Translations under genes and position numbers: made by a program
Source: a virus
Taxonomy: Duplodnaviria > Heunggongvirae > Uroviricota > Caudoviricetes
Length of the DNA: 64,000 nt
Direction: 5' to 3' (one strand)
IMG/VR virus record: IMGVR_UViG_3300045988_007243
Notes under the pieces: model-generated
The model's database searches: none
What the model saw: only the letters and a program-made list of their open reading frames with translations
Told to the model about the DNA's origin: nothing
Part shown: positions 36,483-48,472 of the stretch, one piece after another
Layout: every line of letters starts with the position of its first letter
Numbering within the stretch: the stretch's first letter is position 1

Positions 36483-36580
36483 TTTTAAGTTCTCCAATTT
36501 AGGATTGAGTGGTAAAGCTCTTTATCTGGGGCTTACTTTATCGAACTATAAGCCCCTTGTAAAGTACTTTATTTGTTAAT
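36483..36580 (-). promoter_or_regulatory. repeated leader element, family B (near-identical to 34843-34935)
   Basis: About 95 bp near-identical to 34843-34935 including perfect hairpin. Confidence 0.55.
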
Positions 36581-36953
36581 TTTGAAGATAGTTACATAAC
36601 CATCGCTGCCGATGATTTGTGATGCTCCAGCTTTTTCTACTTGATAGCCCATATTTTCAAGATGGTAAACAGCATCATCATAACCATATGCACCGCCCTG
36701 ATAACGTCTCTTATCACATCTTACTAATACCTTTCCACGTCCTGCCAGTGCATTTAGTACGGCTTTTTCACTTGAAAGTGTACCATCTAACATGGTTGCC
36801 GTGTAATGGTTGATTCTATTCCCGTTTACATCATACTTAAAATTGAATGCGTGAACAACGATAATGTTACCTTTAAAATTTTCATCAAGTGACTTCTCCA
36901 GTGCGTTGCGAAAGTTGTCTTTGTTGATGAATTTAGGTGCACGATATGCCATT
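36569..36953 (-). CDS. hypothetical protein
   Basis: Start moved to ATG at 36953 (MAYRAPKF) after the conserved leader; 128 aa. Confidence 0.45.
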
Positions 36954-37199
36954 TTTGAATCTCCTAGTTTAAGGTTGTTGAGCTTGTCGCCCCGTCTGAT
37001 GCAAATATTAGATAACACAGTTCAAAGAGTCAAGAAAATTTTTAAAAATATTTTTTGCAAAATTGTAATGAAACGGGTGCGCGCGACTACCACAAAACAG
37101 AACTACAATCAAGAATTATTTTTCAATCCGCTACAAATTTTTCTGTTGACTTTTATTTTCAGATGTGGTAGCCTTGTGAGAAATGGCGACAGTCCCACC

Positions 37200-37400
37200 T
37201 ACCCCCACCTACCTGCACAATTCTAAAATGATTTTTCTTGCCCGACCTGATTTTTCTCTGCACGTTTTGAAAATGAAAAAACCCTTTGGAGATTACCTGC
37301 ACAGTTTGAAAATGAATTTTCTCTTTGGAGTTCAAAATTTTCTCTATAGATTCCTCTACAGAACTCTACCTGCACAAATCTGAAATGAAAAAGCCCTCCT
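37200..37400. repeat. direct repeats TACCTGCACA...GAAAATGA in non-coding region
   Basis: TACCTGCACA occurs at least three times (about 37211, 37294, 37366), each followed by (T/C)TGAAAATGA within about 15 bp. Confidence 0.5.
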
Positions 37401-37461
37401 TACCTGAAAAATTTACCAGATAAGAAAGGCTTAGTCTATTGTGAATATACTACGAAGTTTC

Positions 37462-38247
37462 TTAGTTCTTTGCGTCTAAGAAGGTAAGTTCTGGTGAAGA
37501 GAAGATTAACTCAATATCCTCATCAGTTCTTGCATAGATATAAGCATCTGCATCACTGCCAAATGTTACTGCAATTCTGTGATTGCTCTTCGACAGGTGG
37601 GTAACTAGAGCGTTACTCAGAGACATCTTCTCAACCGGAGGGTTACTTTGATGTATCTTACCTTTTCTTCGTCTGAAGAGGGTAACTGCATCATTAGTGA
37701 ACACTACTACACCTGCAAAGTATTCTGGTTCACAGTAGTTCTTCCAACCTGAGAGTAACTTGTGGTACATCTCTCCTTCATAGACATATAGATAAACATC
37801 TACACTCTTCATCACCTGATTGATGATAACTGTGACGGCTTGAGGGTCAAGTCCACCGATACCTGCACCAATCATAGGTAAACCAACTTTCTTCAACTGG
37901 TTAACTTCACAGTATCTGTTAAGCTGTTTCAAAGATGACTCTAAAGCACTGTATCGGGCATCTTTACCAGTATGAAGTTGGGTGTAAAGGTTAGCTATAC
38001 GGCCTTGTTTTAAACGTGCTACAGAGAAATTACCTAGTAAATTTTCACAGGGTTTGTGACGAATGCCACCTGCAAACAGGTAAACTTCTGTGTCAGTATC
38101 ATACACTTTTGGATAACGCTTAGAAATAGTTGCTGCAATACCTGCACCCATGAAATTCATACAGTTGCAACCATGACCAATGATATCAAATTTGCCTTTA
38201 TCAAATGCGTCAAAGATATCACCTTTGATGATTTTTACAATACCCAT
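37462..38247 (-). CDS. macro domain protein (ADP-ribose binding/hydrolase-like) with unknown C-terminal domain
   Basis: 261 aa; N-terminal IIKGDIFDA...DIIGHGCNCMNFMGAGIAATI matches macro-domain signature. Confidence 0.6.
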   Translation of the reverse strand: MGIVKIIKGDIFDAFDKGKFDIIGHGCNCMNFMGAGIAATISKRYPKVYDTDTEVYLFAGGIRHKPCENLLGNFSVARLKQGRIANLYTQLHTGKDARYSALESSLKQLNRYCEVNQLKKVGLPMIGAGIGGLDPQAVTVIINQVMKSVDVYLYVYEGEMYHKLLSGWKNYCEPEYFAGVVVFTNDAVTLFRRRKGKIHQSNPPVEKMSLSNALVTHLSKSNHRIAVTFGSDADAYIYARTDEDIELIFSSPELTFLDAKN

Positions 38248-38448
38248 TTAACATCTCTCCCAAGATTCTTTATCTTCTGAAGGTTTTACACGTTGCCCTT
38301 CGTGGTCTACCCAGATACACCCACAACCTTCACAGATTACTGGCATTGCATAACCAGCTTTAAAGTCATCTTCAGTGATAAGACCTTTTAAGTCACCTGT
38401 ATCACGTCCGAACATTTCGATAGAACAGTCTTTACAGAAGTCAGCCAT
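38248..38448 (-). CDS. small Cys-rich (zinc-ribbon-like) protein
   Basis: 66 aa with CxxC...CxxC spacing. Confidence 0.4.
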   Translation of the reverse strand: MADFCKDCSIEMFGRDTGDLKGLITEDDFKAGYAMPVICEGCGCIWVDHEGQRVKPSEDKESWERC

Positions 38449-45748: not shown

Positions 45749-47530
45749 TTAAAGCTGCTTGTCAATATTATTTCGAATATCACCAAGAGTTGTGTAACCG
45801 AACTGCTCAGAGTCACTAAAGACTAAACGTAAAGCACAAGCTGGGTGGTCAAGTACATCTGCAAAACTCTGGAATCCATAGCCATCTACAGCTTTCAGCT
45901 TATCACCATCCCACATAGGTGCTACACCACCAAAGGCAGATTTCTTAACACCACTATCTGTTTTAGGGTCTTTTGCAAGCATAATCTCTTTACCACCAAT
46001 GCTTGCCAGAGTTGCTTTGACAGCAAATGCAAAGGTGTCACGAGTCATGTACTGGTAAGTGTAAGAACCTACACCAAACACTACGTTAGAGCTTGCAAAA
46101 CCCATTTCATACAAACGCTTCAGTATTTCGTTTGCACGTTCCAACGTGATAGAGTCGCCATAAATAAGCCCGATATGCTCATCCAGTACTTTAAAACCTT
46201 TAGAGTTGATAGTTCCCCCAAAGATGTTATACAGTGTCTTGATAGCTCCATCAATCTCCGCTACAGGACGTGTTACAACGTTTGCAGAACCAACCATATA
46301 AGCATTTTTCAACAGCACTGTATCAGCAACTTCAAAGTCTTCTCTGTCAACAACCATTTCGTAGCCTTCTGACAGTAGCCATCCAGCAATACCATAGTTG
46401 ATGTTTTCAAGCTTCATGTTCAGAACAGCATTCAACATTGTGTCGCTGGCTTCCAGCTTGCTTAAGTGTTCGTAATAAGCCTTTTTAGCACACTCTAAAT
46501 GGATTGCTTTGTATCCTGTGACAATATGTACAGGGTCTCCAGAGTCAGGGCGAATTACCAGTTTACCATCACGTTCCATAATTTCTTTACGGAGTGCTGG
46601 TAAGATTTCTGACACAGTTCTCCAGAAGTTATAAGTATCTGAAACAATACTTGCAATACCAGTTGGGTAAGTTTCTGTTAAGAAACGACGGAAGGTTTGT
46701 AACTCACCTTTAAAGCGTCTTTCTTCTTCAATCAACTCATTACCACCTTCCCAAGCAATGTTTGCACACATTACAGAGTGCTCAGTGGCTGGTACAGAAC
46801 TACCAATATCAGAGATTAGGTAAGACTGACCATAGATTCGTTTAGCCGTGTATACAGCAGGGAAACTATCAGTTCCTTTAAAGCTGGTTAAGTGACCTAC
46901 AGCATTAAATGCGTCATCAGTAAAGCCGGACATACCACGCATAGCAAAGTCATGGCACTGATAAGGCAAATGTAAGTCGTTGTCACAAGTAAGGTCAGAC
47001 CACTTCTTACAGATACGTTTGTAGTGCAATGCAATAGTTGCAATGGTACAAGCCTTCCAAATCTCAGCAGAGAAAGCATCTTCCAGATATCCCGCTACCC
47101 AATGGAAACCTGAAACAGTGTTCTGGAAGACAATCATTGGTACACGCATAGGAACAACTGTGCCTTCTTCTACAGCGTAGACTTCAACTGGTAGATAACC
47201 TAAGTCGTGGAGTGCTTCCCAATGTTCTCGACCAATAGCATCTTTGCCCAGAACACCGTTCATGATTTCTAAGATTTCGTCAATTGCTTCTTTTTTGTCA
47301 CGTTCAAAGAAAGTGGCGTTCCAGTGGTCTATCAAGTAATCTTTAACGAAACGTTGAATACCAAAAGCTACTACACCATCAATTGCTAAAGGGCTGTTAA
47401 ACCATTTATCGCTACGTGGTGTCAGGTTCAGCATAAGGTACTGTGTGGCATCTGGATACTGATATATATGTGATGCCTTGTAAGCATCTGCGTTTAAACC
47501 TGCTGGTACTGCATAAAGTGATTTAGTCAT
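45749..47530 (-). CDS. nicotinamide phosphoribosyltransferase family protein (NAMPT/NadV or Namat-like)
   Basis: 593 aa; NAMPT-family signature incl. HDFAMRGMSGF...GHLTSFKGTDS. Confidence 0.75.
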   Translation of the reverse strand: MTKSLYAVPAGLNADAYKASHIYQYPDATQYLMLNLTPRSDKWFNSPLAIDGVVAFGIQRFVKDYLIDHWNATFFERDKKEAIDEILEIMNGVLGKDAIGREHWEALHDLGYLPVEVYAVEEGTVVPMRVPMIVFQNTVSGFHWVAGYLEDAFSAEIWKACTIATIALHYKRICKKWSDLTCDNDLHLPYQCHDFAMRGMSGFTDDAFNAVGHLTSFKGTDSFPAVYTAKRIYGQSYLISDIGSSVPATEHSVMCANIAWEGGNELIEEERRFKGELQTFRRFLTETYPTGIASIVSDTYNFWRTVSEILPALRKEIMERDGKLVIRPDSGDPVHIVTGYKAIHLECAKKAYYEHLSKLEASDTMLNAVLNMKLENINYGIAGWLLSEGYEMVVDREDFEVADTVLLKNAYMVGSANVVTRPVAEIDGAIKTLYNIFGGTINSKGFKVLDEHIGLIYGDSITLERANEILKRLYEMGFASSNVVFGVGSYTYQYMTRDTFAFAVKATLASIGGKEIMLAKDPKTDSGVKKSAFGGVAPMWDGDKLKAVDGYGFQSFADVLDHPACALRLVFSDSEQFGYTTLGDIRNNIDKQL

Positions 47531-47575: not shown

Positions 47576-48472
47576 TCAATCAAGGTTTGCTACAGTAACT
47601 TGGCCGTAATGTGTTAAGCCACGGTCTTTAGCTTCACCTAAAGAGTTTGTAGTGTAAATATGGTCGATACCATTGTCAAGAAGGTTTTCAACATCTTTAG
47701 AGAAGATACCATGTGTTACATAAAGCTCCACACGTTTTGCACCTGCTTCACGTAGGTGTTTAGCTGCCTCTATGAAGGTTCGACCACCATCACAGATATC
47801 ATCCAGAATCATGACGGTTTTATCTGCCAAATCAACATCATCAAGGATTCGCATACCAGTAATTTCACCAGTCTTAAGGTTACGTACTTTAGACATTGTG
47901 ATGTATGGTTTATCCACCTCTTTAGCAGTCTCTGCAATCTTCTTAGAAGCACCTGCATCTGGGGCTACTAAATAATCAATCAAAGGGTCATTCGCATAGT
48001 GGACTGCAATTTCCTTTTGAGGAATACTTTGGAAGCAGTTAAACAGGTTATCTGGAACGTAACTGTGAGGGTCAACTGCACAGACTGCACCAAATCCCAT
48101 TGCATTTACCTGTTTAGCAAAAACCTTTAAAGCTGCTGCGTCGCCTTTAAACATGTGACGGTCATAACGTGCATTTGGTAAGTAGTAAAAGATGACAGTC
48201 TTTAAAGCATAATCATGAGGAATTAAATCATCAATTGCTTCTTTAGCAAGTGCCACAGCAAACAATGTATCCTTATCATAACCTTTTACAATCATAATCA
48301 CATTGTTGATGGATGATGCTGCATAAGCAGTGAAATCAACAAACTCTGGCGAAAAGTGTCCACCAATCTCACCAGAAGGAAATTGGATGATGTTAAACTC
48401 TTCTTCATGAGTCCCTTTAGTTGGTGAATGAACTGTAACACGGATAGATGTTTTCATAGTTTTCTCTCTCAA
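47576..48472 (-). CDS. ribose-phosphate pyrophosphokinase family protein (PRPP synthetase-like / possible ADPR-PP synthetase)
   Basis: 298 aa; type-I PRTase/Prs C-terminal motif (VMILDDICDGGRTF); N-terminus diverges from housekeeping Prs. Confidence 0.65.
   Translation of the reverse strand: MREKTMKTSIRVTVHSPTKGTHEEEFNIIQFPSGEIGGHFSPEFVDFTAYAASSINNVIMIVKGYDKDTLFAVALAKEAIDDLIPHDYALKTVIFYYLPNARYDRHMFKGDAAALKVFAKQVNAMGFGAVCAVDPHSYVPDNLFNCFQSIPQKEIAVHYANDPLIDYLVAPDAGASKKIAETAKEVDKPYITMSKVRNLKTGEITGMRILDDVDLADKTVMILDDICDGGRTFIEAAKHLREAGAKRVELYVTHGIFSKDVENLLDNGIDHIYTTNSLGEAKDRGLTHYGQVTVANLD

Follow-up and report, generated by a model that had tools for sequence, protein, structure and literature searches.

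A Felix O1-like phage macrodomain protein of the T4 AdfM family with a glutamine-type active site and a lineage-specific C-terminal domain, a candidate DNA ADP-ribosylglycohydrolase

The locus considered here lies in a 64,000-nucleotide stretch of tailed-phage DNA (IMG/VR record IMGVR_UViG_3300045988_007243; we call this whole stretch the window) and encodes a protein of two dissimilar parts, a macrodomain followed by a C-terminal domain, which raises the question of what such a phage enzyme would act on and what its second part would contribute. The coordinates of the features discussed are collected in Table 1. A preliminary description of the DNA had named no strand for the gene, which we place on the minus strand, and the open reading frame it had proposed is real: the frame is in the ORF list, its two-domain layout is kept at 259-264 aa in 30 IMG/VR loci, and it shows the low dN/dS reported below. 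The stop codon lies inside the coordinates given for the ORF, and a GGGAGAG Shine-Dalgarno-like sequence stands 5' of the ATG. The source genome is a Felixounavirus (Felix O1-like, Ounavirinae), since more than 200 Felixounavirus records match the 1.5 kb around the macro gene at 92-97% identity; at least 80% of this region is covered in 230 of the 245 matching phage records. At the protein level, Felixounavirus orthologues have 92-97% amino acid identity to the 261-aa protein, and tblastn found 269 phage records spanning at least 80% of it.

Table 1. Features at and around the macro gene, with coordinates in the window
Feature	Coordinates	Strand	Basis or remark
Complete CDS, macrodomain plus lineage-specific C-terminal domain	37462..38247	minus	ORF list; 261 aa + stop; ATG start
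Macrodomain, aa 1-157, TARG1/DarG/ALC1-like class, Gln-type active site	37777..38247	minus	
Linker helix (aa 158-166) and beta-rich C-terminal domain (aa ~175-261)	37465..37776	minus	Ounavirinae-type phages only; no known homologue
Asn28 codon (AAC), equivalent to TaqDarG N22 / PhiKZ AdfM N23	38164..38166	minus	Alignment
Gln90 codon (CAA) in NLYTQ, at the DarG K80 / TARG1 K84 catalytic Lys position	37978..37980	minus	Alignment
66-aa Cys-rich (CxxC...CxxCxC) protein, upstream of the macro gene	38248..38448	minus	ORF list, sequence; phrog_2210
Rho-independent terminator closing the transcription unit	37391..37432	minus	17-bp stem + T-run
NAMPT-like gene	45749..47530		
Prs	47576..48472		

The macro gene sits in the early region, 3' of rIIA, rIIB, and a polynucleotide-kinase-like gene (in synteny with phage Alf5), the product of the last being encoded 2 kb upstream, and its neighbours are small phage early genes of unassigned function. 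With this position and a terminator of its own, the macro gene is best explained as one expressed early, for an anti-defence enzyme of the AdfM (anti-DarT factor, macrodomain) family. The TAA stop codon of the upstream 66-aa gene adjoins the ATG of the macro gene; this small Cys-rich protein was considered as a conserved partner and rejected, being missing 5' of the phiEa104 orthologue. The terminator begins 30 nt past the macro gene's stop codon, and it is conserved in the alignment of relatives and also recorded in the annotation of phage Barry. The repeat-rich region at 37019-37460 described earlier does exist, but it had been placed upstream of the gene, whereas for a minus-strand gene it in fact lies on the 3' side. 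In transcription order, the region comprises the terminator, a 22-nt motif present in four copies, and the sigma-70-like promoter of the next gene; an Rfam search of it returned nothing close to any gathering score. The NAD+ genes that had been pointed out, NAMPT-like and Prs, are likewise present in the genome; they are not adjacent to the macro gene, lying 7.5 kb off in another part of the early region.

We are confident in assigning residues 1-157 to the TARG1/DarG/ALC1 class of macrodomains because of the Pfam Macro score, the AF2 model, and the matches to DarG models, and the N-terminal macro fold claimed in the preliminary description is confirmed over that extent. The Pfam Macro profile (PF01661) scored 30 bits against a cut-off of 22, aligning residues 25-141 with profile positions 2-117 of 118. 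The AF2 model, built with 12 homologues, has a mean pLDDT of 85 and a pTM of 0.86 for the whole protein, and its N-terminal part has the three-layer alpha/beta/alpha arrangement of a macro fold. The sole meaningful curated-family matches were to DarG models, namely NCBIfam NF048014 (E=1.5e-14) and the PADLOC DarG model (E=7.8e-15), with the match confined to the macro part; NF048014 reached 54 bits against a cut-off of 250 and was aligned over profile positions 2-150 of 338. TARG1 gave the best PDB sequence match (profile E=2e-10), the SCO6735 structure 5E3B gave a weak one (E=0.09), and the closest neighbours in sequence and structure together were TARG1, DarG, SCO6735, and BT1257 rather than MacroD- or PARG-type macrodomains. 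In an alignment of 21 distant relatives, the two predicted glycine-rich ADP-ribose phosphate loops, M33-G34-x-G36-I-A38 and P124-x-I126-G127-x-G129-I-G-G, vary little or not at all.

Within this class, the family to which the protein belongs is defined by phrog_335, labelled 'phosphatase', which matched it across residues 1-260 (E=3.6e-114) and also matched T4 Tk.4 (E=1.3e-65) and the phiEa104 orthologue (E=1.2e-75). By tblastn, residues 3-160 of the window protein share 34-36% identity with the Tk.4 proteins of T4-like phages, and this macrodomain enzyme family is present in more than 2,800 phage records. Besides their PHROG, the Felixounavirus and T4 proteins share the HGCNC, MGxGIA, (E/D)AD, NLYTQ, and PxIGAGIG motifs, and both are encoded by early phage genes, that of T4 being non-essential. 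They differ in that T4 Tk.4 is a bare 155-aa macrodomain, whereas the Felixounavirus protein adds a C-terminal domain of about 100 aa without a T4 counterpart. Among 69 IMG/VR loci, the relatives outside the 259-264-aa group were likewise macro-only, 149-203 aa long, or in rare cases carried an N-terminal extension; one relative (P0019) has the macrodomain fused to a cREC_REC 'cyclic-phosphate processing' receiver domain. We therefore place the protein in the T4-type AdfM family (PHROG 335); it is not a DarG.

What is known of this family in phages comes from two systems. In a transposon screen, tk.4 was the single conditionally essential T4 gene on E. coli expressing DarTG2 (bioRxiv 10.1101/2025.11.20.689424), and a clean tk.4 knockout sensitised T4 to DarTG2, for which the gene was named adfM (10.1101/2025.11.20.689424). 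The support for T4 adfM is genetic and comes from this one preprint, in which enzymatic removal 'seems likely' (10.1101/2025.11.20.689424). The PhiKZ protein gp104, also called AdfM, strips DarT2-made ADP-ribose off DNA in vitro, and its N23A substitution abolishes activity (PMC13309987). This chimallivirus DarG2-like antitoxin is, like the window protein, a phage-encoded DarG/TARG1-class macrodomain with the conserved Asn, but it has a DarG-type FPTK motif (K78) where the Felixounavirus protein has NLYTQ (Gln90), and it is a stand-alone protein that lacks a C-terminal domain and enters the phage nucleus by import. A literature search found nothing linking Felix O1-like phages to DarT or treating their macrodomain.

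The difference at this lysine bears directly on whether the window protein can be an enzyme at all, and we examined it in an alignment of solved DarG macrodomains, TARG1, BT1257, T4 Tk.4, and three Ounavirinae proteins. Loss of the conserved catalytic residues had been named beforehand as the outcome that would tell against the macrodomain role. The lysine of DarG and TARG1 is indeed absent, with Gln90 in its place, and the position of TARG1 D125 is a Gly, but functional loss does not follow, as Gln90 is family-wide and Asn28 is conserved. In 21 distant homologues including T4 Tk.4, there is no variation at G26, N28, C29, D52, N86, L87, Y88, T89, or Q90, and conservation of H25 and C27 is at least 90% in the same alignment. 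The column of Gln90 holds Gln in all 90 relatives inspected (21/21 aligned sequences and 69/69 IMG/VR relatives), among them one (L061) that is Gln-type yet otherwise clearly DarG-like (E=6e-17 to TaqDarG).

A precedent for such a site is the Streptomyces coelicolor protein SCO6735 (PDB 5E3B; PMC9411070), in which Q85 occupies the DarG/TARG1 lysine position (PMC9967889). SCO6735 efficiently cleaves thymidine-linked ADP-ribose off DNA and can neutralise DarT; either Q85A or Q85E abolishes its activity, and a water-mediated mechanism has been proposed (PMC9967889; PMC9411070). The equivalence of Gln90 with Q85 is transitive: our alignment pairs Gln90 with DarG K80 and TARG1 K84, residues that published work in turn equates with Q85. 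Both SCO6735 and Bacteroides BT1257 (PDB 2AFC) are ALC1/TARG1-class macrodomains with Gln replacing Lys, as here, although these bacterial proteins are single-domain, have a longer central loop, and lack the C-terminal domain. Human TARG1/OARD1, also single-domain, has K84 and D125 where the Felixounavirus protein has Gln90 and Gly. Because Gln90 is conserved in all relatives inspected, including T4 AdfM, and because of the SCO6735 precedent, we read the change from Lys to Gln as neither loss of function nor decay. This family-wide site would tie the genetically defined T4 AdfM to the water-mediated mechanism of SCO6735 and thus offer a testable catalytic model for the phage enzyme family.

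The remaining half of the protein is less familiar. The preliminary description had found no recognisable motif in a C-terminal part of some 120 aa; the lack of a known match has held up in Pfam, PDB, and profile searches, while the size is closer to 100 aa. Structure prediction together with profile searches, which had been suggested as the way to follow it up, gave a beta-rich domain and no known homologue: after the linker helix, AF2 predicts six beta strands and a C-terminal helix, with a pLDDT of 76-91 in the full-length model and an average of 78 in a model of the domain by itself. This part of the protein is real and under purifying selection, but it evolves faster than the macro part, with a dN/dS of 0.18 against 0.07 across 18 distinct Felixounavirus alleles. 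Where both parts were compared with the window protein in one set of sequences, identity was 12-54% for the C-terminal part and 44-81% for the macro part. Its only invariant residues are Pro174, Gly179, and Tyr236, none of its polar or charged residues is conserved, and it is neutral to mildly acidic (pI 4.6-8.7).

Searches for this domain outside the close relatives of the protein returned very little. A Pfam scan of the domain alone gave no match at E<=10, and an exhaustive HMMER scan of 1.84 billion representatives found a single full-length relative besides a fragment and a spurious Ig-repeat match, while its profile retrieved just two fragments of orthologues from 5.8 billion proteins. 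The best result of a profile search against the PDB was ribosomal protein L25 (E=0.2, not significant), and Foldseek against the viral fold library BFVD returned the SUSP2 orthologue alone. No separate C-terminal ORF was found beside the macro-only relatives by hmmsearch of 4,388 ORFs from the 69 loci. Two particular candidates were rejected with hhalign, namely T4 Tk.3, encoded 3' of tk.4 (probability 0.1%), and the C-terminal extension of the same length in Kolesnikvirus phiEa104 (probability 0.2%). The 30 proteins of 259-264 aa among the 69 IMG/VR loci come from contigs of 51-94 kb, all but three of them 81-94 kb, as expected for genomes of Ounavirinae size, and in these comparisons the domain is restricted to Ounavirinae-type phages. 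Since the combination of a macrodomain with this new domain was not found in the literature searched, we regard the architecture as a new variant of a known enzyme. The simplest reading of the C-terminal domain is that it is a non-catalytic binding or adaptor module with a fast-changing surface. Its lack of detected relatives, its faster evolution than the attached enzyme, and its exchange between near-identical genomes commend it as a candidate for a novel module of protein-protein or protein-DNA interaction in the arms race with DarT, and one that is tractable.

Taken as a whole, and with a probability that we put at roughly 0.55, the protein is an AdfM-type DNA ADP-ribosylglycohydrolase that would reverse the DarT2 modification of phage single-stranded DNA by means of Asn28, Gln90, and a water molecule, with the C-terminal domain serving as an accessory binding module. 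Under this model, the DarT2-type toxin of DarTG2 would ADP-ribosylate thymidines in single-stranded phage DNA and so block replication, and the N-terminal macrodomain would bind the ADP-ribose through its glycine-rich loops MGAGIA and PMIGAGIGGLD. The bond between thymidine and ribose would then be hydrolysed in a water-mediated reaction with Asn28 and Gln90, as in SCO6735, with no lysine of the DarG/TARG1 type being involved. The C-terminal beta domain of about 100 aa would be a non-catalytic, Ounavirinae-specific accessory module, whose host-varying partner would most probably be the DarT toxin itself or the DNA/replication substrate. We infer the substrate, DarT2-modified DNA, from the homology with T4 Tk.4, to which identity is about 35%; the basic charge of the macro part (pI ~9) would fit a nucleic-acid substrate. 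The accessory-binding role of the C-terminal domain is likewise a deduction. Reversal of ADP-ribosylation, as the preliminary description had suggested, is in any case the best-supported role, given the PHROG shared with T4 Tk.4/AdfM and DarG as the closest curated families.

A different chemistry would apply if the macrodomain processed a metabolite, either as a Poa1p-like ADP-ribose-1''-phosphate phosphatase or as an O-acetyl-ADP-ribose deacetylase, and so served the NAD+/ADP-ribose economy or RNA repair instead of DNA de-modification. Database labels ('phosphatase', 'Poa1p-like') speak for this, as do the match of the family profile to Poa1p structures (E=9e-6, confined to residues 1-61 and the shared H-x-C-N-C...G-x-G-I-A), the cREC_REC fusion of the relative P0019, which points to metabolite or RNA-end chemistry, and the presence in the genome of NAMPT, Prs, and the nearby polynucleotide-kinase-like protein. 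However, the 'phosphatase' label stems from motif similarity and was never assayed, the NAD+ genes lie at the distance given above, and the best curated and structural matches are DarG/TARG1-type DNA or protein glycohydrolases. Yeast Poa1p, which has the N-terminal HxCNC...GxGIA region in common with the window protein, is a single-domain phosphatase acting on a free metabolite. With resistance to DarTG2 being the only known phenotype of a family member, we consider metabolite processing unlikely. An ADP-ribosyl hydrolase with some other target is about as improbable, the candidates being mRNA ADP-ribosylated by a CmdT-like enzyme, ADP-ribosylated protein, and the gcADPR or His-ADPR signals of Thoeris-type systems. 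Macrodomains like these can be promiscuous, since proteins too are de-modified by SCO6735 and TARG1 (PMC9967889), CmdTAC is a defence whose ADP-ribosyltransferase modifies mRNA (PMC11618068), and the divergent alleles presented below could mirror several targets. Set against this, the only genetic match of T4 tk.4 was DarTG2, and we saw no resemblance in fold or sequence to known anti-Thoeris proteins.

The replacement of the catalytic Lys by Gln90, along with the Gly at the TARG1 D125 position, could also be taken to mean that the protein is a non-catalytic reader that sequesters ADP-ribose, modified DNA, or DarT and leaves the C-terminal domain to act as the effector, and catalytically dead SCO6735, DarG, and TARG1 do still inhibit DarT through interaction (PMC9411070). 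Yet a Gln at this position gives SCO6735 full hydrolase activity and is essential there (PMC9967889; PMC9411070), and N28, Q90, D52, and both Gly loops are strictly conserved in very distant relatives, as in an enzyme. The C-terminal domain, moreover, is an unlikely effector enzyme because it has no conserved polar residues, and on balance we find a purely binding function quite improbable. That the C-terminal half is an artefact, whether by read-through, a mis-called ORF, or a sequencing-error fusion, has a chance close to nil. The one observation in its favour, a short metagenomic contig (L005) in which the macro and C-terminal parts are called as two overlapping genes, is most simply explained by a frameshift in a low-coverage assembly. 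An artefactual fusion is refuted by the continuous ORF in 30 independent IMG/VR loci and the 269 records spanning most of the protein, by a dN/dS that reflects selection on protein, by the AF2 confidence values for the region and the whole protein, and by the position of the terminator 3' of the stop codon.

Returning to the favoured reading of an AdfM-type hydrolase with an accessory domain, the bacterial DarG of DarTG2 (PDB 5M3E, 5M3I) offers a parallel in layout. The two proteins have in common the conserved Asn, both phosphate-binding loops, and the order of an N-terminal macro part and a non-catalytic C-terminal domain. They differ in the catalytic residue, K80 of FPTK in DarG against Gln90 here, and in that the Felixounavirus protein is phage-encoded, with phage early genes as neighbours and no adjacent darT; its C-terminal domain showed no similarity to the DarT-binding C-terminal part of DarG or to any PDB chain. 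In a possible but doubtful extension, the C-terminal domain would have evolved independently to bind a toxin, making the protein a convergent, two-pronged mimic of DarG. If so, the macrodomain would erase ADP-ribose from DNA while the C-terminal domain would bind and block DarT or another effector, and divergent alleles would be matched to different toxin variants among hosts.

Such alleles are found in near-identical Felixounavirus genomes. Two IMG/VR Felixounavirus contigs (L032 and L033) match the window at 94% identity from 2.5 kb upstream of the gene to ~140 nt into it, but over the rest of the gene identity is at most 72% and confined to small patches; it is 75-81% in the intergenic region and 88-92% further downstream. 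The protein they encode (P0009-type) is 40% identical to the window protein and keeps all active-site motifs. Because the flanks are 94% identical but the allele is 40% identical, this divergence suggests an arms race, and counter-defence genes typically show allele replacement of this kind. Felix O1-like phages have wide use in typing, biocontrol, and therapy directed at Salmonella and E. coli, and their hosts carry DarTG systems; knowing the AdfM-type counter-defence of these phages would help to predict host range. The same allele pattern is seen in a short Logan contig, whose upstream 66-aa protein is 100% identical to that of the window.

The macro locus (37462-38247) has undergone allele replacement. 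In two IMG/VR loci (L032 and L033) and one Logan contig (L005), the flank upstream of the macro gene is approximately 94% identical to that of the window, and the protein encoded by their macro/C-terminal domain allele shares only 40% identity with the window protein. One apparent breakpoint of the replacement lies approximately 140 nt into the macro gene, and the other falls within the downstream intergenic region. In L005, a contig of 1.4 kb, gene calling places the macro and C-terminal parts (positions 291-1069) in two overlapping genes, which is most likely an assembly frameshift and not a natural split. The 66-aa Cys-rich protein encoded immediately upstream is 100% identical in a contig with the divergent macro allele; its gene is absent upstream of the macro orthologue of the Erwinia phage phiEa104 (Kolesnikvirus).

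The macrodomain of the phiEa104 orthologue is 41% identical. The C-terminal extension of this orthologue, approximately 105 aa long, shows no detectable similarity to the C-terminal domain of the Felixounavirus proteins (hhalign probability 0.2%); the extension could have arisen either by extreme divergence or by a domain swap that left the length unchanged. In a metagenomic relative of 339 aa (P0019), a macrodomain that is of the Gln type (NLYTQ) and belongs to the family of the window protein is followed at the C-terminus by a fused cREC_REC domain ("cyclic-phosphate processing receiver"; PF20274, E=4.7e-7), so the C-terminal partner gained by this macro subfamily differs from phage to phage.

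The macrodomains of two IMG/VR phage contigs, L061 and L072, clearly resemble bacterial DarG in sequence (E=6e-17 to the DarG macrodomain TaqDarG). In contrast to DarG, however, they carry a Gln (NIASQ) in place of the catalytic Lys, and their sequences are intermediate between DarG of bacteria and the Gln-type family of T4 and Felix.

Downstream, between the terminator of the macro gene and the next promoter (37210-37400), four direct copies of a motif of approximately 22 nt (minus strand, TCATTTTCAAnnnGTGCAGGTA) are present, the first of which overlaps the T-run of the terminator. The motif is more conserved than the adjacent coding sequence, is still discernible in phiEa104, does not occur elsewhere in the 64-kb window, and matched no family in Rfam. 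Its copies could be binding sites for a regulator or phage-specific promoters.

Features at and around the macro locus (window coordinates unless stated)
Feature	Coordinates	Strand	Remarks
Macro orthologue, phiEa104	L004 2498-3280		260 aa
66-aa Cys-rich protein	38248-38448	-	CxxC...CxxCxC, zinc-ribbon-like, phrog_2210; stop codon abuts macro gene ATG
Motif copy	37214-37231	-	direct repeat
Motif copy	37259-37276	-	direct repeat
Motif copy	37298-37315	-	direct repeat
Motif copy	37371-37388	-	direct repeat
Sigma-70-like promoter TTGACT-17-TAATAT	37033->37005	-	conserved; precedes 36569-37018 gene
phrog_4495-matching gene	36569-37018	-	mechanical ORF listing, GTG start
NAMPT/NadV-like nicotinamide phosphoribosyltransferase	45749-47530	-	Pfam-confirmed
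Ribose-phosphate pyrophosphokinase	47576-48472	-	Pfam-confirmed

The sigma-70-like promoter is accompanied by an AT-rich upstream element. In the gene that follows, the phrog_4495 match starts at residue 23, where there is an ATG (36952), and the listed GTG start is probably set too far upstream. The phosphoribosyltransferase and pyrophosphokinase genes form an NAD+ salvage module, which lies on the same strand as the macro gene, 7.5 kb upstream of it and past rIIA and rIIB.
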